From a bacterium (GTDB lineage Bacteria; Patescibacteriota; CPR2; UBA1875; JAJYID01): a stretch of DNA of 64,000 nt. Made by a program: the position numbers and the translations under genes. Positions 7,607 through 48,174 of the stretch are shown here, one piece after another. Numbering within the stretch: the stretch's first letter is position 1; every line of letters starts with the position of its first letter. The stretch is from assembly GCA_021787535.1 (NCBI GenBank), contig JAJYLR010000001.1, forward strand, positions 147,648-211,647. Reading direction: 5' to 3'. Below the pieces are notes generated by a model. That model searched no databases, was not told the origin of the DNA, and saw only the letters and a program-made list of their open reading frames with translations.

Positions 7607-7927
7607 ATGAGTGAGGTAGTTGTGACAGATCAAAACTTTGAAGCAGAAGTGCTCAAAGCAAAAGGCGTGGTAATGGTTGATTTTTGGGCTCCCTGGTGCG
7701 GACCATGCCAAATGGTCGGTCCGATTGTAGCGGAACTTGCGAAAGATTTTGAAGGCAAAGCCAAGGTTGGCAAGCTGAATGTTGATGATAATCCGCAGAC
7801 AGCCGGAAAATACGGAGTGATGAGTATTCCTACTTTGATTATTTTTAAAGACGGGGAAGCTGTCCAGACTTATGTGGGTGTTCAGTCGAAAGAAACCTTA
7901 TCTTCTAAACTTAAATCTTTAGTTTAA
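7607..7927 (+). CDS. trxA: thioredoxin
   Basis: WAPWCGPCQ active site; GGAGG RBS before ATG 7607. Confidence 0.9.
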   Translation: MSEVVVTDQNFEAEVLKAKGVVMVDFWAPWCGPCQMVGPIVAELAKDFEGKAKVGKLNVDDNPQTAGKYGVMSIPTLIIFKDGEAVQTYVGVQSKETLSSKLKSLV

Positions 7928-12734: not shown

Positions 12735-14003
12735 ATGAAAGAGTTAATTTCGAACGTTTCGAATGCCCTAAAAAGGAGGCCCAAAGACCCCGTTTATGTC
12801 GCTCTTGATGTAGGAACGGAGTTTGTTAAGGCCTTTGTCTTCAAAATCGAAAACGGCAAAGCGGTCATTAGCGGGGTAGGGCGGCAGCGCCAAAGATTAG
12901 GCGATATGCACGGCGGAGCAGTAACGGATATTTCTGGTGTGGTTGAAAACTGCGCCAAAGCGCTCGATAGAGCAGAGGAAATGGCCGGTGTAATCAGCGA
13001 CTTTGCAGTTATCGGTATCGCCGGCGAACTGGTCAAAGGGACAACGACTACCGTTCATTATGAGCGCCTGAAACCGAAAACAAAGATTGATTATAACGAA
13101 CTGAAAAACATTGTGAACAAAGTCCAGTGGAAGGCCTTCGATGCTGCCCGCCAGCAGCTGGCATGGGAAACCGGTCACGAGGAAGTTGATGTGAAATTGG
13201 TCAATGCCTCGATTGTCGATGTTAAAATTGATGGCTACAGAGTGACTAATCCAATGGGCTTTCAAGGCAAAGATGTCAGTATCGGAGTGTTTAACGCCTT
13301 TGCGCCGCTTGTGCATCTGGGCGCACTTCAGACAATTGCATCTGACCTCGATCTTGAACTTCTTTCCATTGCTGCCGAACCATATGCGGTGGCTAAGAGT
13401 GTAGGCAGTGAGGAAGCGGGAGAGTTCAGCGCTATCTTTATCGATATTGGCGGCGGAACTTCTGATGTGGCGGTGGTCCGAAACGGCGGTCTGGAAGGAA
13501 CGAAAATGTTTGCCATTGGTGGCCGGAGCTTTACCAAAAGATTATCGCAAGTTTTAAACTTATCCTTTTCCAAAGCTGAAAACATCAAACTTGCTTATTC
13601 AAAAGGCGAGCTTGAAAAAGAAAGCGAGAAAACAATCAAAGAAGCCCTGGAGGCGGATGCTGACGTTTGGCTTTCCGGTATTGAACTTTCGCTTAGCGAG
13701 TTTTCAAATATTGACCTTCTGCCGTCGAGAATCATGCTTTGCGGCGGCGGCTCGGCGCTGCCTGAGATTAAAAAAGCTTTGGAAAAACCGGGTTGGTACA
13801 AGGATCTGCCCTTTGCCAAAAAACCGCAGGTGAGTTTTATTAAGCCCGAGGAAGTTAATCATTGTGTAGATAAAACCGGCCAGATCAAAAATCAGCAGGA
13901 CATCACTCCGATGGGGTTAGCTAATCTGGCTTTGAATATTGAAGAAGAGGAAGGAGTCTTGCCGGGGATATTGACCAAGGTGGCAAAGGCGATGCAAAAT
14001 TGA
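12735..14003 (+). CDS. ftsA: FtsA-like actin-family ATPase (FtsA/PilM superfamily)
   Basis: VALDVGTEFVK N-terminal phosphate-1 motif, DIGGGTSDVAVV phosphate-2, 422 aa as FtsA; no ftsZ adjacent. Confidence 0.5.
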   Translation: MKELISNVSNALKRRPKDPVYVALDVGTEFVKAFVFKIENGKAVISGVGRQRQRLGDMHGGAVTDISGVVENCAKALDRAEEMAGVISDFAVIGIAGELVKGTTTTVHYERLKPKTKIDYNELKNIVNKVQWKAFDAARQQLAWETGHEEVDVKLVNASIVDVKIDGYRVTNPMGFQGKDVSIGVFNAFAPLVHLGALQTIASDLDLELLSIAAEPYAVAKSVGSEEAGEFSAIFIDIGGGTSDVAVVRNGGLEGTKMFAIGGRSFTKRLSQVLNLSFSKAENIKLAYSKGELEKESEKTIKEALEADADVWLSGIELSLSEFSNIDLLPSRIMLCGGGSALPEIKKALEKPGWYKDLPFAKKPQVSFIKPEEVNHCVDKTGQIKNQQDITPMGLANLALNIEEEEGVLPGILTKVAKAMQN

Positions 14004-14093: not shown

Positions 14094-15728
14094 ATGGATA
14101 ACAAAATATTATATCTGGAAATAGACGAGGAGATAACTTCGGTCATTGATCGGCTAAAAAAGACAGCTGAAACCGAGATTCATTTAGTGGTTCCGAAAGA
14201 AGCGGCGCTGCTACAGAGTATTGTGAATTTAAAACTGCTCAAGAAACAGGCCGACTCTTTAGGCAAAGAGATCCAAATTATCACTCACGACAAAGTCGGC
14301 CGAAATCTGGCCGAGCAAGTCGGCATTCACTCGGTATCTAAAATAGGCGAACCGGTCAAGAAGGCGGCTTCTGTTATGGCAGAACCGGCAAATGAAATTA
14401 AATTTAAAGAACGTGAGCCGGTGGTGCAAGATACGCAGGAAGTAGTTTTCAAAAAAGGGTCGTTGCTTGATAAAGATGAACCTTTGAAAGAACCGGCTAA
14501 AGAAGCAAAACCGGTCAAAAGCGGGAATAAAGAAGTTCAGAAAAAGAAAATGAGCGAGTTACTCCCTAAGTTTCCGCACAAAAAATTTCTTATCATCGCT
14601 TCCGTTGTCGGCTTGGTACTTTTAATTTTTCTCTATATCTTTATTCCAATGGCAAATATTACTTTGAAAATAGCCGCCGAACAGAAGAATATGAAAGCTG
14701 ATTTTACTATTGATAAAAACGCAAGCGGTATCGATAACGGCTCTCAGAAGATACCCGGAGATCTTATTTCAGTTAATAAATCAGAGACTAAAACTTATCA
14801 GGCGACCGGCAAGAAAAATGTCGGCACTCAAGCTTCAGGTACCGTTACCGTGAAAAATACTTATAGTACTGTCTCGCAGACTTTGGTAGCCGGCACTAGA
14901 TTTGAGGCAAACGGGCTAGTCTTTAGAACTCAGTCCGATGTGAGTGTGCCGGGCTACAGCGATTCCGGCGGAGGTAATATCACACCTGGGACGGCTAATG
15001 TCAGCGTTTTAGCTGACAGTCCTGGCGATCAGTATAATATCTCGTCATCGGATTTTCGCATTCCGGCTTTTGCCGGTACGGCCGAATATGACAAGATGAC
15101 CGGGGCAAGCGCCGGCCAAATGTCGGGAGGTACTACAAAAAATGTTAATGTAGTCACGGATTCTGACATCTCAAATGCCAGAAATTCCTTTGCCGGTGAC
15201 GCCAAAAGTGATATTCAAAAAGATGGGCAAGATAAGATGAAATCCGGTGAAACCGTGGATGACAAAGCTCAGAAGATGCAGGTTAGCAGCATTACGGCTT
15301 CAAAAAACGCCGGTGATGAAGCAGATAACTTTACGCTTTCAGCCAATGTATCTTATGAAGCCCTTGCTTACAAAAAAGACGATCTCAACAAGCTTGTGTA
15401 CGATAATTTGAAAAGCCAGACCGGTCCGGGCAAACAAATTCTCGAGGATAAACTTGATAATGTTGATATCACAGTGAATAATGTCAATCTCGAAGAAGGT
15501 ACGGTTTCCGGCCAAGCAGCTGCCTCGGTTCATTTGGGCACTAAAATCGACCAAAATCAGGTCAAAACCGAAATAGCGGGGGAGGGTGAGCGTAAAGCCA
15601 AAGCATATCTTTCCGGCCTTGACGGAGTTGATAGCGTAGATATTAAATATTTTCCGGGCTTTATCAAAAGTATTCCTCGCATCAAAAGCCATATCTATAT
15701 CAAAACGAACTTCGAAGAAAAACAGTAA
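14094..15728 (+). CDS. hypothetical bitopic membrane protein (cytoplasmic N-domain, one TM, large Ser/Thr/Gly-rich extracytoplasmic domain)
   Basis: TM helix FLIIASVVGLVLLIFLYIFIP at ~aa 165; no known motif. Confidence 0.4.
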   Translation: MDNKILYLEIDEEITSVIDRLKKTAETEIHLVVPKEAALLQSIVNLKLLKKQADSLGKEIQIITHDKVGRNLAEQVGIHSVSKIGEPVKKAASVMAEPANEIKFKEREPVVQDTQEVVFKKGSLLDKDEPLKEPAKEAKPVKSGNKEVQKKKMSELLPKFPHKKFLIIASVVGLVLLIFLYIFIPMANITLKIAAEQKNMKADFTIDKNASGIDNGSQKIPGDLISVNKSETKTYQATGKKNVGTQASGTVTVKNTYSTVSQTLVAGTRFEANGLVFRTQSDVSVPGYSDSGGGNITPGTANVSVLADSPGDQYNISSSDFRIPAFAGTAEYDKMTGASAGQMSGGTTKNVNVVTDSDISNARNSFAGDAKSDIQKDGQDKMKSGETVDDKAQKMQVSSITASKNAGDEADNFTLSANVSYEALAYKKDDLNKLVYDNLKSQTGPGKQILEDKLDNVDITVNNVNLEEGTVSGQAAASVHLGTKIDQNQVKTEIAGEGERKAKAYLSGLDGVDSVDIKYFPGFIKSIPRIKSHIYIKTNFEEKQ

Positions 15729-18658: not shown

Positions 18659-20014
<1,356 letters not shown>

Positions 20015-39967: not shown

Positions 39968-40768
39968 TTAGGACAGGTGCTCGCATTTCTTGTAAGCGCC
40001 TTTTGTGTAGCCGATAGCTTCCGAAAGAACGAGATGATCGTCCGGTCCCATACGAAGGGCTCCTTCGGCGTCAACACTCGCGTCAGGACAAATCTCGAGA
40101 ATTGGATCCAGGAGATCAAGATTACCCTTGTGTAGACCGCCTGCCACTGTGATGCCGATGTCCAGAGCTGCTGCCTTTATAGCTTTCATGTTCTTGACCA
40201 TCAGGCCAGGGAAGAGCTCTATGCCGAGTCCGCCGGAGATGTCGAGGATCAGATAATCAACCTCGCCATTCAGATAGGCTGCTCGGAAGCGTTTCACCAG
40301 TTCCAGAGCGGTCTCAGTGGAGTCCTTGAGTGTCCAGCGTCCTGCCTGAAGTACGATCTGCATCTCAGGGAACTTCTCCTTGAACTTCGCAATTTCGCCG
40401 GCTTCCGGCCAGGCCATATTCAACTGAAATCCATGGAGATTAGGTCCGGCTATGTCACTAGCGATCATCATCAGCGCTTCCCCGAGACCTTCGGAACTCT
40501 TCAGTCCATCACCGTAGTGAATCAGATTGAATGCCCGAGGATCATCGGTGAATATACCGCTTATATCGTTGCCCATAGGATAGCGGCCGGTCCATTTGTT
40601 GCCGTTGCCGTAGATCGTCTTGGGGCTTGCCAGCACCCCCACCATGAACTTCCTGGATGCATTTGAAGGGATAGCACCCATCACAGTTTCTACCTCTTCC
40701 CGGGTCATAAATCCGGTAATGCCGATGTATGGTTCGTGTCTCATTACTCCTACCAAGATGTCAACCAC
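39968..40768 (-). CDS. TIM-barrel protein, weakly TrpF (phosphoribosylanthranilate isomerase)-like
   Basis: IGITGFMT..., YLILDISGGLG..., ITVAGGLHKGNL resemble PRAI motifs; minus strand, higher GC. Confidence 0.3.
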   Translation of the reverse strand: MVDILVGVMRHEPYIGITGFMTREEVETVMGAIPSNASRKFMVGVLASPKTIYGNGNKWTGRYPMGNDISGIFTDDPRAFNLIHYGDGLKSSEGLGEALMMIASDIAGPNLHGFQLNMAWPEAGEIAKFKEKFPEMQIVLQAGRWTLKDSTETALELVKRFRAAYLNGEVDYLILDISGGLGIELFPGLMVKNMKAIKAAALDIGITVAGGLHKGNLDLLDPILEICPDASVDAEGALRMGPDDHLVLSEAIGYTKGAYKKCEHLS

Positions 40769-40783
40769 TTGATATTATGCCTA

Positions 40784-40807
40784 TCTGTAGGCATAATTTT
40801 TTGTTCG
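40784..40807. promoter_or_regulatory. 10-4-10 perfect palindrome ATTATGCCTA-TCTG-TAGGCATAAT in divergent promoter region
   Basis: read from sequence. Confidence 0.35.
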
Positions 40808-40888
40808 AATAAATTGATTGAACTGACAGGACTCGAACTTTTAAGCACAAAATTGTTCCCCTCTCGGGTTTATTATTTCTCTGGAAAG

Positions 40889-40916
40889 TTGACATGTAGA
40901 TAAAGTGTAGTATATT
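40889..40916 (+). promoter_or_regulatory. promoter TTGACA-16-TATATT
   Basis: read from sequence. Confidence 0.45.
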
Positions 40917-40953
40917 GATTATAAGAAATATGTATTAAACGGAGACAATAATT

Positions 40954-41268
40954 ATGTCAGAAGAACAATCAATGGATGATTTACGTCATGAAATGTATGA
41001 CGAAGATAGAGTTCAAGATCCAGAAAAGGCTCGTGTTATGGCGGAAGCAGAAAGGCCACATCAAGAAAAGGCTAATGAGCGTTTCGATTACGCAAAGAGA
41101 TTGGAAAGTATCGCGGAAGAAATACGATCAGAATATCCGGAAGAAGCAGGTAAGCTTCTTGATGTTGTTGAACAACTCAATCAAGATGCCAATTGGGGAG
41201 ATCTCAATATGGCAGACAGTAAGGGTCAAGAAGCAGGCGAAAAATACGATTCAGAAAAAAGTGATTAG
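40954..41268 (+). CDS. hypothetical acidic protein
   Basis: 104 aa, highly acidic; preceded by TTGACA-16-TATATT promoter and GGAGAC RBS. Confidence 0.35.
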   Translation: MSEEQSMDDLRHEMYDEDRVQDPEKARVMAEAERPHQEKANERFDYAKRLESIAEEIRSEYPEEAGKLLDVVEQLNQDANWGDLNMADSKGQEAGEKYDSEKSD

Positions 41269-41535
41269 TATTTCAAGAGCCACAAGAACTTGTCTATGCA
41301 GAGAGCTTCTCTAAGTGCTGTTTTAGCCCATTTAGAAGGGAAATCTCACTTTTGGTATAGTTCGAATAACGTAGCACCTGGTCTCCTTTTGTTTTCAAGT
41401 TGCGAACTATTTACATGATATTTGCCTTGTCAGTATATTGATATTGCGTTATATGGGTAAGCATTTAGGCTAAACCGTGCTTGCTTCGTCAGCTTTCTTA
41501 TTGAAAATGTTAATGTTATATGTCAAGATATTGAT

Positions 41536-41982
41536 ATGATAAAGTGTCCATATTGCAGGGAAGATTTTAATGACGTCAAAAACAGCCGTTCGACATACAA
41601 TGGCTCGCAAGTTTGGCGGCGGAGACTCTGCCGGAAATGCGGCAAAACATTTACCACTTATGAGAAAGTGCGGCCGGACTTTCTTTTTGTCATTAAAAAA
41701 TCGGGAAGAAAAGAAAGGTATTCTCGCGAAAACATCTACTCAGGTATTTATCGCGCTGCTCTGGACTGGAAGGATAAGGAAAAGATTGTCAACAAGATAG
41801 TAGATATAGTCGAGTCGAAAATCCTGGATCTTGGGGAAAAGGAGGTAAAGACATCTGAGATTTCAGACATAGTCCTGAAAGTCTTGAAGCACTCAAACAT
41901 TAAAACATTTGTTCGCTTTCTAACATACAACAAACAGCCGCAAGGTGAGGAGGAGTTCACCAAACTCTTTAGAAAATACTAG
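41536..41982 (+). CDS. nrdR: transcriptional repressor NrdR
   Basis: N-terminal zinc ribbon MIKCPYC...RRRLCRKCGKTFTTYE and ATP-cone; 148 aa. Confidence 0.8.
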   Translation: MIKCPYCREDFNDVKNSRSTYNGSQVWRRRLCRKCGKTFTTYEKVRPDFLFVIKKSGRKERYSRENIYSGIYRAALDWKDKEKIVNKIVDIVESKILDLGEKEVKTSEISDIVLKVLKHSNIKTFVRFLTYNKQPQGEEEFTKLFRKY

Positions 41983-42075
41983 TTTTGTTGTATAATTGCT
42001 TTAGAAGTCAAAGAAAATCGGAGGCAAACTCTGATTTTTTAAACTCGTATCTTGATATAGGAAGGCGGACAAATC

Positions 42076-42276
42076 ATGAAAAGTTTTGTGATCGGCTTTA
42101 CTCTGATAGTTATAACTGTGTTACTGACTATCATATTTAATGTGACAAATGTTGTTCCGGGCTCATTCCTGCATTTCATTATAGCTTCTGTTGCATTCGC
42201 ATCACTGATTATCGGTATATGGTTTATATATGGTTGGTTTGACTCAAAACTATTTCCAAAAAAAGGGGGTCAGTAA
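42076..42276 (+). CDS. small 2-TM membrane protein
   Basis: 66 aa, two hydrophobic helices, basic tail. Confidence 0.4.
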   Translation: MKSFVIGFTLIVITVLLTIIFNVTNVVPGSFLHFIIASVAFASLIIGIWFIYGWFDSKLFPKKGGQ

Positions 42277-42277
42277 G

Positions 42278-42499
42278 GTGAAAAAGATTTTGTTGGTTAT
42301 ATGGCTCCTAGTGCTGGCTGAGGTAGTTACATTTATTATCCCGCCTCATTTTGAGCAGAAAGCTGATCTGTCTTTTGAGGCCTGGCTAGTTCTCGGTCTC
42401 ATGCCCGGCAGCTTTGGGTTGGGTCTCCTGTTTGCATGGTTGCCCCCAAGGGAAAAAAAGAGCGGTTCTGGCCGTGTTTGGTCTCGTCCGATGCGATAA
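42278..42499 (+). CDS. small 2-TM membrane protein
   Basis: GTG start 2 nt after upstream stop with GGGGG RBS; two hydrophobic helices. Confidence 0.4.
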   Translation: MKKILLVIWLLVLAEVVTFIIPPHFEQKADLSFEAWLVLGLMPGSFGLGLLFAWLPPREKKSGSGRVWSRPMR

Positions 42500-42517
42500 T
42501 TAAAACGGAGGTGAGTG

Positions 42518-42721
42518 ATGGCGCTAGACCCTGAGAAACCTTCTAGTATTTGCCATAATCCGGACTCTGTATTTTACGAGACCGAGCCATGTGAGTGCGC
42601 GTCCTGCAAATTCACCAATGATAGCCATCGTTGCGTGGATGATCCGTGTAATGGATGCGAAGAACCGACAGTTGATTGCGGTATTTCAGAACAAATCAAA
42701 AAAGAAGAAAGAGGCGAATGA
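42518..42721 (+). CDS. small Cys-rich soluble protein (8 Cys)
   Basis: GGAGG RBS; CHNP...CECASC...CVDDPCNGCEEPTVDC. Confidence 0.4.
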   Translation: MALDPEKPSSICHNPDSVFYETEPCECASCKFTNDSHRCVDDPCNGCEEPTVDCGISEQIKKEERGE

Positions 42722-42722
42722 A

Positions 42723-43034
42723 ATGGCAATATTCAAACCCAATGCGTCCAGGGAAACAAAAGTTCTGATAACGGGATTTCTGATGACTTTTCTGGGGGTT
42801 GTCGCAGTCATTGCGATCGTGGCTCTTTTCCCCGATCAGTATGAAATGCCATTCATCCCCGTATCCGTGCTAAGCTTGCCTGGGTTAGCTTTGATGCTGA
42901 TCTTCTGGTTCAAAGCGCCTAAGTATGCTTGCAAATATGACAGGGGACTCTGTGATGGGCACTGCAGAGACAAAAAACAGCGCATCATTTGTCCTGAATA
43001 TGGCAAATGTTCAGAACATGATTTAAGCGGATGA
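42723..43034 (+). CDS. small 2-TM membrane protein with Cys-rich C-terminal tail
   Basis: ATG 2 nt after upstream TGA; two helices then CKYDRGLCDGHCRD...CPEYGKC. Confidence 0.4.
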   Translation: MAIFKPNASRETKVLITGFLMTFLGVVAVIAIVALFPDQYEMPFIPVSVLSLPGLALMLIFWFKAPKYACKYDRGLCDGHCRDKKQRIICPEYGKCSEHDLSG

Positions 43035-43050
43035 CCGGAAGGAGGACTAG

Positions 43051-43242
43051 ATGTCCAAGAGGTTATTTCTACGGACTATGGAACTTGTCTTGGCGATCAT
43101 TTTGATCGTACTGGCCTGGCAATATGTCGATTTCATCAGGATTAAACCCTTCTGGGGAAGTGCTAGTCTGATTCTTTGGACTGTCGGTGTGCCAATGGCT
43201 ATCATGAAAAATCGGGCTATGCATCATATACGAGGTGAGTGA
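43051..43242 (+). CDS. small 2-TM membrane protein
   Basis: GGAAGGAGG RBS; 63 aa. Confidence 0.4.
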   Translation: MSKRLFLRTMELVLAIILIVLAWQYVDFIRIKPFWGSASLILWTVGVPMAIMKNRAMHHIRGE

Positions 43243-43247
43243 AGTTG

Positions 43248-43499
43248 ATGACCAGAGGAGAATTGTTTAAAGCCAAGTACGGCCTTAGCTTGAGCGGGGT
43301 ATTTTGGTTTATGACTGTCTTTATTCTGGTGATTGTGGCGATGATCGGATTAGCTTTAGTATTCGCTGATCTCAACCATCATTACTTCGTTCAAGCGGTG
43401 GGTTTTCTCATTGTTTCCGGTGTATTGGCAGTCTGCCTTTTCATTCTCGGATTCATAGCCCGCCGGTACGATCGCCAGCCAATTAAGAGAGTGAGGTGA
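43248..43499 (+). CDS. small 2-TM membrane protein
   Basis: overlaps upstream stop; alternative GTG 43239 or TTG 43245. Confidence 0.4.
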   Translation: MTRGELFKAKYGLSLSGVFWFMTVFILVIVAMIGLALVFADLNHHYFVQAVGFLIVSGVLAVCLFILGFIARRYDRQPIKRVR

Positions 43500-43505
43500 G
43501 GGAAG

Positions 43506-43652
43506 GTGAAAGATAGTCAAGAAGGAACGCGGGGTGAAAATTCAGATGTTTCGGTTGAGTACCAAACCGTAGACCCTGCCTGCGAGATGTGTATGCTGGA
43601 ATGCGAGAGGTGTGGACTTGGCATTCCACTTGAAAAGCAGGGGAATCGGTGA
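43506..43652 (+). CDS. putative 48-aa Cys-rich peptide (two CxxC pairs)
   Basis: GTG after GAGGTGAGG RBS; CEMCMLECERCG; below ORF-track size cutoff; followed by two mutually exclusive hairpins. Confidence 0.25.
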   Translation: MKDSQEGTRGENSDVSVEYQTVDPACEMCMLECERCGLGIPLEKQGNR

Positions 43653-43668
43653 AACGCTCGCTTTTATG

Positions 43669-43718
43669 GCGGGGACAAGAGAAGTGGTCTTGTCCCCGCC
43701 ACAGAGGGGACTTTTTTG
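43669..43718 (+). terminator. two mutually exclusive hairpins: 12-bp stem GGCGGGGACAAG/CTTGTCCCCGCC versus terminator GTCCCC-loop-GGGGAC + TTTTTT
   Basis: read from sequence. Confidence 0.5.
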
Positions 43719-43846
43719 AAAAAAGAGTCCTTTTTTTCTTTTTATGAAAGAAGGTCGGATCTTTCTAGTACCCGCCAGGTCCGAACCTCAAAACAAATCC
43801 AAAATAGATTCCCGACTTCACGGAATAACAGAAAGGTTGCAAAAGT

Positions 43847-43875
43847 ATTGTCAAACCTCGCCAAAATCTGTATAA
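43847..43875 (+). promoter_or_regulatory. promoter TTGTCA-17-TATAAT upstream of uvrA
   Basis: read from sequence. Confidence 0.5.
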
Positions 43876-43961
43876 TGGAGAGGTTTCTGGCGCCTCCTGC
43901 AAACGGGGGAATGGATTTTTGGCTTACACAGTGCATAAATTTTTAATATTTTGAGGGCAAT

Positions 43962-46786
<2,825 letters not shown>

Positions 46787-46787
<1 letters not shown>

Positions 46788-47545
46788 TGGCTTATTTTCG
46801 TGAAAGAAATAAATTGCATATTGAATACTCTGGTAATGAAGAAGTGTCTGAAAGCTTGAGAAATAGACTGATAGCTATACATAAAAAATATACTAATTAT
46901 TCTACCAATTATGGTCGATATATTAAGAAAACGAATTTAGAGCATGAGCTTCTGATTCATCTAGAAAACTCAGATTATATTAACATCTTATGCAATGAAC
47001 CTTATGATTCTGTTTTTGAAGCAGTAGAAATTTTCATTGAGCTAGCAGGAAAGGATGCTCATAACAATATTGGTGCTATTATTGTTGAGATCGAAAGAGC
47101 CTTTCTTTTGTCCGGAAGTGTTTATGAGATTGACAAACAATGTCAAATTTCCCTAAAAGTAGACCGAAAAACAGCAGAAAGATTAAATGATATTGAAGCC
47201 ATTTTTGATCAGGATGCTAAGGAAAAATTTTTTGATTCAGTTGGTAAATTTCTATCTCGGAAGTTAGCACCCAAGGACACAATTAAAGATGTTTTTGTCG
47301 CCTTTGAAGATTATTTGAAAGAAAAGTTAGCTGTAAAGGACTATTCAAAAGCGATCGAAAAGCTGAAAAAAGAAGGAATAATTTCAAATACTCAAAAGGC
47401 TTTATTAGAAAAAATTTATGCTTATAGGTCTGATACTTATGGTGTCACTCATGCTGGTAACTCCGAAGAACCAAAAGAACTAGAAGCAGTTTGGTTTATA
47501 GATACTGTTTCGGCGCAAATTATTTATCTTTCCAAGAAAATTTAG
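46787..47545 (+). CDS. hypothetical protein (AT-rich island gene 1)
   Basis: TAATG overlap with uvrA stop; very Lys/Ile/Asn-rich; C-terminal R-x7-H (RSDTYGVTH) loosely HEPN-like. Confidence 0.35.
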
Positions 47546-47655
47546 TTGTTTTGGCACAGAAAAAAGGAACAAAAATTTGGTAAAGTGGACGCAGAAAAAT
47601 TTTTTTGAAACAAAGCCAAAATACGGTATAATTATAAGGTAATAAAGGATTCCCT

Positions 47656-48174
47656 ATGGGTTTTCAAGAACAAATCATAGCTACTTTTATTGGTGCACTT
47701 TCAGGTTTTATTTTTTCAATAGCGGTTTTTTATATAACAGAAAAAATTAGACAAGCAAATTATAACTCTAATCTGGCAAAAAATATTCAAAAAGAAGCCG
47801 ATTTCAACGTTAGTTTACTTGATACCATCAAAGAAGAAATTGACGAACTACTAAGAAAAATCTCAGCAAATGATGCCGGCCATATTTATACAATATTTAA
47901 ATATGATCAATTACAGAAAAACTTTCTCCAACAAGCTCTTTGGAATGGTTACTTATACGAAAAGTTGGAAACAGAAGATATATATAAAGTTCAAGAAATG
48001 TGGAGCTTTTTTATGCCGTCTTCCAATCAGTTCGATATAGGTAACGTTGAGCTACTAAAGTCCGGGCAAATGACTCAAGCTGATGCCCTGAATCGTTTTG
48101 AATATGTTAAGAAGAAAATCATAGAATTTAAAAAATTTAATAAAGATCTGAAAAAGAAATTCACGAACAAATAG
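47656..48174 (+). CDS. hypothetical N-terminally membrane-anchored protein (AT-rich island gene 2)
   Basis: TM helix IIATFIGALSGFIFSIAVFYI, no known motif. Confidence 0.35.
   Translation: MGFQEQIIATFIGALSGFIFSIAVFYITEKIRQANYNSNLAKNIQKEADFNVSLLDTIKEEIDELLRKISANDAGHIYTIFKYDQLQKNFLQQALWNGYLYEKLETEDIYKVQEMWSFFMPSSNQFDIGNVELLKSGQMTQADALNRFEYVKKKIIEFKKFNKDLKKKFTNK

Follow-up and report, generated by a model that had tools for sequence, protein, structure and literature searches.

The stretch of DNA analysed here, referred to below as the window, comprises 64,000 nt (positions 147,648 to 211,647 of contig JAJYLR010000001.1). Its closest named TrmD matches are from 'Patescibacteria group bacterium', which places the host in the Patescibacteria, also known as the candidate phyla radiation (CPR). 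At 42076-43652 the + strand carries seven consecutive open reading frames (ORFs) of 48-103 amino acids (aa), which we designated o1 to o7. An earlier note on this DNA, made from the sequence alone, had described a closely packed block of seven such ORFs located between nrdR and uvrA. All seven were found on the + strand, and both neighbours were identified: nrdR (41536..41982, + strand) forms the left border and was recognised by its Zn_ribbon_NrdR and ATP-cone domains in Pfam, and uvrA, whose promoter was located at 43848..43876 on the + strand (11/12 matches in a consensus scan), forms the right border.

The first ORF, o1 (42076-42276), encodes 66 aa with a two-transmembrane (two-TM) hairpin and a basic C-tail ending in FPKKGGQ. 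The GTG start of o2 (42278-42499) lies 1 nt past the o1 stop, and its product of 73 aa is again a two-TM hairpin with a basic tail. The next two ORFs both start with ATG: o3 (42518-42721) encodes an acidic soluble protein of 67 aa with 8 Cys, and o4 (42723-43034) a two-TM hairpin of 103 aa with a Cys-rich basic tail. The 63-aa product of o5 (43051-43242) has a basic tail, one strong TM segment and a second, weaker hydrophobic one. o6 (43245-43499) encodes a two-TM hairpin of 84 aa with the basic tail RRYDRQPIKRVR; alternative starts at GTG 43239 and ATG 43248 would give 86 and 83 aa. The last ORF, o7 (43506-43652), starts with GTG and encodes an acidic soluble peptide of 48 aa containing CxxCx3CxxC. 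The intergenic gaps from o1 to o7 are 1, 18, 1, 16, 2 (or a 4-nt overlap) and 6 nt. A GGAGG-like (Shine-Dalgarno-like) ribosome-binding site (RBS) was seen upstream of every start, as the earlier note had claimed; that of o5 is GGAAGGAGG, and the GTG start of o7 is preceded by GAGGTGAGGGAAG.

Kyte-Doolittle hydropathy showed two hydrophobic helices followed by a basic C-tail in o1, o2, o4 and o6, and one strong and one weaker hydrophobic segment in o5. The five hairpins with basic tails proposed before are thus borne out, with the second segment of o5 weaker than the rest. N-termini and tails of the hairpins are basic and the inter-helix loops are acidic. No Cys occurs inside the TM helices of o1, o2, o4 and o5, and one occurs in those of o6. 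The two remaining proteins are soluble and Cys-rich, again as first described; both have an isoelectric point (pI) of 4.4 and an N-terminus that is not hydrophobic. The Cys residues of o3, 12% of the protein, are C12, C25, C27, C30, C39, C44, C47 and C54, and no signal peptide was evident in o3 by hydropathy, no predictor having been run. A Cys-rich C-tail had also been assigned to one of the hairpins; it is present in o4, and its number of Cys is corrected here to five.

A sigma-70-like site, TTTAGA-17-TATAAT (41968..41996, + strand; 10/12 in a consensus scan), overlaps the end of nrdR and probably marks where transcription of the small-protein unit begins. TATAAT also stands right behind the nrdR stop in L002, L003 and L011 (related loci are denoted by L numbers). 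The operon ends at a double-hairpin intrinsic terminator with a T-run (43667..43735, + strand; dG -42.3 kcal/mol, z -6.1). The GC content of the block is 45.1%, compared with 42.9% for the window and 43.7 +/- 4.3% for long genes, so the block is not anomalous; the earlier statement that its GC exceeds that of the flanks holds for the upstream flank (37.9%) and fails for uvrA (52.2%). No Rfam family was found in 40700-44100, and no convincing att-like direct repeats flank the block.

ORFs cover 97.7% of the block on one strand. In 500 dinucleotide shuffles the coverage averaged 54.6% and never exceeded 85.9%; none of them (0/500) reached the observed value. Under a codon log-likelihood model trained on the long genes of the window, the annotated frame was the top-scoring of six in 6/7 ORFs, and o6 was tied with one antisense frame. 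The codon log-likelihood ratios were positive but low, ranging from 0.00 (o5) to 0.17 (o7) bits per codon versus 0.28 +/- 0.07 for long genes; low absolute scores are expected because the proteins are hydrophobic. All seven exact sequences are present as called proteins in public assemblies, and o7, which is called in NCBI/ENA, is uncalled on Logan contig L001. The variant contig L009 is 98% identical to the window across o3-o6. Its 18 substitutions (8 synonymous, 10 nonsynonymous) give a ratio of nonsynonymous to synonymous differences per site (pN/pS) of 0.35; in addition, its o4 carries a 3-nt insertion that keeps the frame, and its o5 stops three codons sooner. The tiling, the RBSs, the frame scores and the conservation of o2 and o4 (see below) uphold the earlier description of seven very small proteins encoded in one operon, and we regard it as highly likely that the operon is real and that it encodes small membrane proteins and Cys-rich ones.

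Homologues of o2 and o4 are adjacent in another species, in L002 and in L010, which is identical to L002 over the island. The o2 homologue shows 46-50% identity (E 5e-15; ratio of nonsynonymous to synonymous substitution rates, dN/dS, ~0.18) and the o4 homologue 46-48% identity (E 5e-31; dN/dS ~0.13); pS of the pair is ~0.72-0.74, which is saturated, and pN is 0.32-0.36. The alignment fixes the start of o4, which reads MAIFKPN in the window and MGIFKPN in L002. Its most conserved part is the tail, A-C-x-YDRG-x-CDG-x-C-x2-K-x-Q-x-IIC-x2-Y-x-KC, in which all five Cys are invariant between the window and L002. Because their adjacency is conserved, o2 and o4 probably work together as a conserved core pair. 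No o3 lies between the two homologues of L002, and o3 appears to be a lineage-specific insertion between o2 and o4. The single-sequence AlphaFold2 model of o4 consists of helices 10-35 and 46-64, a helical hairpin, with an unconfident tail; its predicted local distance difference test score (pLDDT) was 61, and that of the o3 model, which is unreliable, was 57. Both scores are too low to justify fold searches.

Other relationships were also considered for these proteins. Paralogy of o1 with the o2 family was not established (hhalign probability 25%), no paralogues of o1-o7 were found within the window, and o3 showed no similarity to the 8-Cys protein of the L017 slot. The 'CDGH' in the o4 tail was also considered as a CDGSH iron-sulfur (mitoNEET-like) motif. 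That motif is C-x-C-x2-(S/T)-x3-P-x-C-D-G-(S/A/T)-H, in which the His is a conserved ligand, whereas o4 has C-x6-CDGHC; the spacing is wrong, the L002 homologue has Glu in place of the His, and there was no match to Pfam zf-CDGSH.

All seven proteins were scanned against Pfam, PHROGs, PADLOC and NCBIfam, and gave only sub-threshold matches driven by hydrophobic helices. The best library match was that of o6 to PF07332 (Phage_holin_3_6), with 20.0 bits (cut-off 28.4; E 7e-4) over the TM core; the other ORFs matched no holin model. Matches in PHROGs were only to families of unknown function, among them a weak one of o1 to PHROG 12633 (E 3e-4); the similarity of o6 to MerT/CopZ in NCBIfam (E 0.076) is at chance level, and 0/7 proteins matched a PADLOC defence model. 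In a word-indexed search of 5.8 billion proteins, o3 and o4 each retrieved only themselves, and an exhaustive phmmer search of 1.84 billion representative proteins with o4 returned itself and one spurious tandem-repeat protein (P0002). A profile of the o4 family found nothing in JGI metagenome contigs or IMG/VR viral contigs, and a metagenome scan with a lineage-specific 280-aa neighbour revealed no further syntenic loci. Neither tblastn of o4 and o6 against 50,697 phage genomes nor blastn of the whole block against plasmids gave a match. Searching PDB sequences with o3, and with the profile of o4, yielded only chance-level matches of the Cys tail to EGF and scorpion-toxin sequences (E ~0.6), and a literature search gave nothing relevant to the locus. 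The earlier view that no known system matches therefore stands across library, protein, metagenome, viral, phage, plasmid and PDB searches. The protein families are new to the databases searched, while their general kind, orphan small membrane proteins in a flexible CPR islet, is familiar.

Ten related genomes were retrieved via nrdR, uvrA and TrmD. Their common backbone is rpsP, a KH protein gene, trmD, a ferredoxin gene, X, uvrB, a slot, uvrA, a second variable interval and uvrC. The genes on either side, uvrB and uvrA, are kept (89-93% aa identity for uvrA) and the content between them differs across the ten genomes, which is the pattern of a flexible islet. This context is decisive for the locus and had been missed in the earlier note. 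In a conservation and synteny search, o2 and o4 were kept in L002/L010 and the flanks were kept throughout; other slot content differs from relative to relative. With products given by length in aa and minus-strand genes marked (-), the window slot contains 266 (-), 104, nrdR and o1-o7, and that of L002 and L010 contains 253 (-), nrdR, 412, 108 (-), 319 (DAGK_cat), 68 (TM), 108 (Cys), 89 (TM), 66 (o2 family), 117 (o4 family) and 95 (TM). L003 has nrdR, 93 (TM), 67 (TM), 38 (TM) and 53 (zinc-ribbon-like), and L005 has an NYN-domain protein, 78 (TM), 79 (Cys), 92 (TM) and 122. The L013 slot holds 151, 85 (TM), 79 (TM) and 107 (-); that of L016 holds 119 (9 Cys), 76 (TM), 93 (TM) and 92 (-). Two soluble proteins of ~100 aa (-) occupy each of the L007 and L012 slots, 79 (8 Cys, -) and 113 (-) that of L017, and only an uncalled 31-aa TM peptide that of L006.

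Several families are shared in a mosaic manner. Besides o2 and o4, which are shared with L002, the 95-aa protein of L002 belongs with the 93-aa protein of L016, the 92-aa and 122-aa proteins of L005 with the 85-aa and 151-aa proteins of L013, respectively, and a minus-strand family of ~100 aa is common to L007, L012 and L016. Among genes of up to 130 aa (<=130 aa), counted in the slot and elsewhere in the same loci, those with at least one TM helix made up 19/36 in the slot versus 5/41 elsewhere (Fisher p = 1.7e-4, a test that overstates independence since the genomes compared are related).

Blastn alignments of the window with L002 and L003 break off at the nrdR stop, or just short of it, and DNA homology is picked up again at the terminator. 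The terminator is 82-88% identical 3' of + strand small-gene operons in L002 (15140-15215), L003 (4659-4728), L013 (15409-15477) and L016 (15753-15827). Its stem 1 (GCGGGGACAAGA / TCTTGTCCCCGC) is invariant in the five genomes, with no covariation or compensatory changes, although synonymous sites among those genomes are saturated. The sequence is thus kept beyond the need of a plain terminator, and it could alternatively be a protein-binding site, a recombination site or a 3'-end-derived RNA.

The uvrA-uvrC interval is also variable and is a second flexible islet, of defence type. Relatives carry a methyltransferase together with MutH-like, DpnI-like or PIN genes there. In the window, a low-GC (~30%) segment directly 3' of uvrA (46787-48174) contains two orphan genes encoding 252 and 172 aa, the first of which (46787-47545) matches the PADLOC candidate PDC-S32 (E 3e-10) and is unrelated to o1-o7. 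In the more distant L017, uvrC directly follows uvrA.

We favour the reading that the block is a lineage-restricted unit of seven genes, made of inner-membrane hairpins and cytoplasmic, probably metal-binding Cys-rich parts, with an accessory role in the envelope or in conflict; as a whole we give it an even chance. That the unit is accessory and lineage-restricted is very likely. The genes form one transcription unit with its own promoter and the strong double-hairpin terminator, and the seven small proteins would be translationally coupled. The products of o1, o2, o4, o5 and o6 would insert in the cytoplasmic membrane as helical hairpins, with both ends and the basic tails on the cytoplasmic side, as the positive-inside rule predicts from basic N-termini and tails and acidic loops. 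This topology would in turn put o3, o7 and the Cys tail of o4 into the reducing environment of the cytoplasm, where clusters of conserved Cys usually ligate zinc or iron-sulfur centres. These three parts most likely bind metal, as zinc or an iron-sulfur cluster, and would probably be held at the inner membrane face beside the hairpins, with o2 and o4 as the conserved core pair. The module would be a fast-turnover accessory one, acting for example in phage exclusion or in interaction with a host cell or competitor, and not in housekeeping. A conflict or envelope role in particular is put forward tentatively, from context only: the turnover among relatives, the mosaic sharing, the adjoining restriction- and defence-type interval and the lack of an enzyme in the block point to it. 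The data show the coding status of the ORFs, the anatomy of the operon, the hairpin character of five products by hydropathy, their lack of relatives, and the variability and TM enrichment of the slot; topology, metal binding, physical association of the parts and the role are inferred.

Several observations weigh against this reading. None of the seven proteins matched any defence, toxin or stress-response model in the libraries scanned. Apart from o2 and o4, which alone are deeply conserved, the proteins (o1, o3, o5, o6 and o7) were found only in near-identical contigs, and codon scores are low throughout. The pN/pS below 1 between the window and L009 indicates constraint, not diversifying selection. 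The TM enrichment was measured among related genomes, and small Cys-rich soluble proteins are not enriched (8/36 in the slot versus 11/41 elsewhere, the latter being ferredoxin and L32), so that the theme of a hairpin plus a Cys-rich partner may be coincidental. The relatives are also fairly distant, with TrmD ~70% identical, and part of the apparent replacement could be divergence past recognition.

A bolder form of the favoured reading, which we find doubtful, is that the slot is a cassette-type locus of a hitherto unrecognised sort. In it, a conserved transcriptional frame with an invariant terminator would receive interchangeable hairpin proteins shuffled between lineages. One of the modules would be o2-o4, with a metal site of five Cys tethered to the membrane. 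The proteins would act at the cell membrane, in phage exclusion or episymbiont-host contact. Flexible islets and defence islands resemble the locus in their conserved flanks (here uvrB, uvrA and uvrC), changing content and defence-type genes in the adjacent interval. They differ in that this slot contains only tiny membrane and soluble proteins, with no PADLOC match, integrase or flanking repeats.

Among known systems, the locus is most like operons of small hairpin membrane proteins (holin-like, Psp/Yvl-like or Mer-like) and fails those of their defining features that are testable. The likeliest rival is a module for metal or redox homeostasis, an idea already listed in the earlier note. In it the Cys-rich o3, o7 and o4 tail would serve as buffers or sensors of a metal or oxidant, and the hairpins would make up a small device for transport or anchoring; its analogues are the small Mer transport proteins and metallothionein-like buffers. 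The Cys content suits such a module: eight of the 67 residues of o3 are Cys, arranged in part as CxCxxC and CxxC, o7 has CxxCx3CxxC, and the five tail Cys of o4 are invariant at 46% overall identity. All three parts are predicted to be cytoplasmic, which favours metal ligation over disulfides, and metal-resistance genes are typical content of flexible genomes. MerT, MerF and MerE with MerP likewise combine two- or three-TM hairpins of 70-120 aa with a small Cys-containing soluble protein and cytoplasmic Cys ligands. However, o1-o7 lack the vicinal Cys pair in TM1 and have no TM Cys pairs elsewhere, no HMA fold match and no MerA. Neither a MerR- or ArsR-type regulator nor a reductase or P-type ATPase is encoded in the vicinity, and no match to HMA, metallothionein or zf-CDGSH families was obtained in Pfam, NCBIfam or PDB. 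Their paired Cys make o7 and o3 candidates for zinc ribbons or zinc knuckles, in which two CxxC-type pairs bind zinc; no family model matches. The bacterial metallothioneins SmtA/BmtA have a very high Cys content, and o3 and o7 did not match them in Pfam, NCBIfam and PDB. As small Cys-rich proteins are, moreover, not enriched in the slot, we consider this module unlikely.

Small two-TM hairpins with charged C-tails in a variable genome slot could also be a phage-derived cassette, that is, holin/antiholin-like lysis genes or superinfection-exclusion proteins that a mobile element left in place, and the weak matches of o6 to Phage_holin_3_6 and of o1 to PHROG 12633 lean the same way. Those matches span hydrophobic helices only, and the likeness of o6 and its neighbours to holins (less than 110 aa, two TM helices, a charged cytoplasmic C-tail) is generic and does not discriminate; here, in place of one or two, five different hairpins follow each other. 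The block and its immediate surroundings contain no endolysin, spanin, integrase or other phage gene, no relatives occur in IMG/VR or the 50,697 phage genomes, no direct repeats flank the block, and its GC is typical of the genome. A phage-derived cassette is improbable on this evidence, and the lysis cassette suggested in the earlier note is not supported. Type I toxin-antitoxin systems consist of a single short hydrophobic toxin and an overlapping or adjacent antisense RNA; two-TM proteins in a seven-gene operon are atypical for them, and no Rfam antitoxin RNA was found.

We attach similarly little probability to an operon of small membrane proteins of the envelope-stress type, which would stabilise the membrane or signal its state. 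The pspBCD, Bacillus subtilis yvlABCD and yxlCDE (sigY operon) genes form operons that encode nearly only small integral membrane proteins with short cytoplasmic tails. The block resembles them in that nearly all of its products are membrane proteins shorter than 110 aa whose basic tails would face the cytoplasm, and in having its own promoter and terminator. It shares no domain with them, however: PspC, PspB, DUF360 and similar domains were absent in Pfam and NCBIfam, and no sigma factor, other regulator or PspA/LiaH-type partner is adjacent. Its content varies even between related species, which is unexpected for a stress system.

The bacteriocin with serial immunity proteins that the earlier note had listed among its candidates fares worse and is very improbable. 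In this explanation o3 and/or o7 would be Cys-rich precursors of a bacteriocin or of a ribosomally synthesised and post-translationally modified peptide (RiPP), and the hairpins would confer immunity. Small Cys-rich peptides beside several small TM proteins do superficially resemble class II bacteriocin, sactipeptide and SCIFF loci, and gene content differs between strains. But o3 and o7 are acidic and predicted to be cytoplasmic, with no double-glycine or Sec leader and no match in Pfam or NCBIfam, and no radical-SAM maturase, C39 peptidase, ABC exporter or LanB/C/M was found among the neighbours. In addition, o3 is missing between the o2-o4 pair of L002, so the 'immunity' genes persist without the 'toxin'. 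Finally, that the ORFs arose by chance or are frameshifted remnants of one larger gene, the latter being the case that the earlier note had named as its refutation, is hardly credible: low codon scores and the lack of detectable homologues outside near-identical contigs for 5/7 would agree with it, but tiling far beyond shuffles, an RBS at every ORF, the best frame in 6/7, the in-frame indel and pN/pS of L009, and the occurrence of o2 and o4 as two distinct small ORFs, each with unchanged ends, in a species with saturated synonymous sites, with no long homologous gene at this place in ten related genomes, lead us to reject it.

Further genes of the slot were noted in the course of the comparison. 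Both nrdR and an orphan 266-aa gene (39968-40768, - strand; no Pfam match) lie inside the uvrB-uvrA interval. This pair is present in the interval in the window, L002/L010, L003 and L011, and absent there in L005, L006, L007, L013, L016 and L017. Upstream of nrdR, 40954-41268 encodes an orphan 104-aa protein, very acidic, with 0 Cys and no TM helix; it has its own promoter-like site at 40889-40916 and no family match, and is a singleton cluster in the public collection. In L002, 11848-12174 (- strand) and 13669-13995 (+ strand) encode 108-aa soluble proteins ending in NYAFVYSWSA and NEYAAFSWGL, respectively; they may be divergent paralogues on opposite strands, with a blastp similarity (E 0.1) that is not significant. 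L006 has the shortest uvrB-uvrA gap, ~400 nt, and at ~7705-7800 contains the uncalled 31-aa ORF (MAWKVVKVGLLALAGLFLLYIGKILKIKLAR) with a single TM helix, so that even this 'empty' slot may encode a tiny membrane peptide.

Three intergenic elements were also observed. In the uvrA promoter region (43841-43895), CTTGnnA...TCTGTATAATGG..AGGTTTC, with an extended -10 and GGTTTC just downstream, is conserved in nine genomes (L002-L016 aligned), which suggests a conserved regulatory or transcription-start element. A hairpin element of ~45 nt, AAAGAGGGTCGGAyCCTTG..GTAC.CGCCAGGTCCGACCCTCAAAGCA, recurs in intergenic sites: in the window at 43747-43796, between the operon terminator and the uvrA promoter, with its stem partly degraded; in L013 at 14212-14259 and 19122-19173, behind uvrB and behind uvrA; and in L016 at 14558-14605, behind uvrB. 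Possible identities are a repeated terminator and a REP-like (repetitive extragenic palindromic) element marking rearrangement points. A motif near CAGTATATTGATAT occurs at 40908-40921, 41431-41444, 41524-41537 and 42045-42058, upstream of three consecutive units (the 104-aa ORF, nrdR, twice, and o1), and overlaps predicted -10 hexamers in part. The whole window holds 10 copies versus 5.9 expected, a difference of weak significance since several copies were found by construction; the motif could be a shared operator.

CPR genomes are small, with a large share of unexplained genes and many membrane proteins, which are suspected mediators of episymbiosis. Orphan small membrane proteins are no great surprise in CPR genomics, and no long-standing question is resolved yet by this locus. 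It is a clean and well-delimited case, in which content turns over between relatives while the terminator is fixed. Five hairpins in seven genes and an invariant membrane-tethered five-Cys motif are unusual, as is the recurrence of unrelated small membrane proteins in one slot upstream of a sequence-invariant terminator. Both the slot pattern and the o2-o4 module offer concrete leads for testing. The locus may prove to be one more orphan operon; should its proteins turn out to work in phage exclusion or in contact with the host, the slot would be a compact experimental handle on accessory membrane functions of the CPR.

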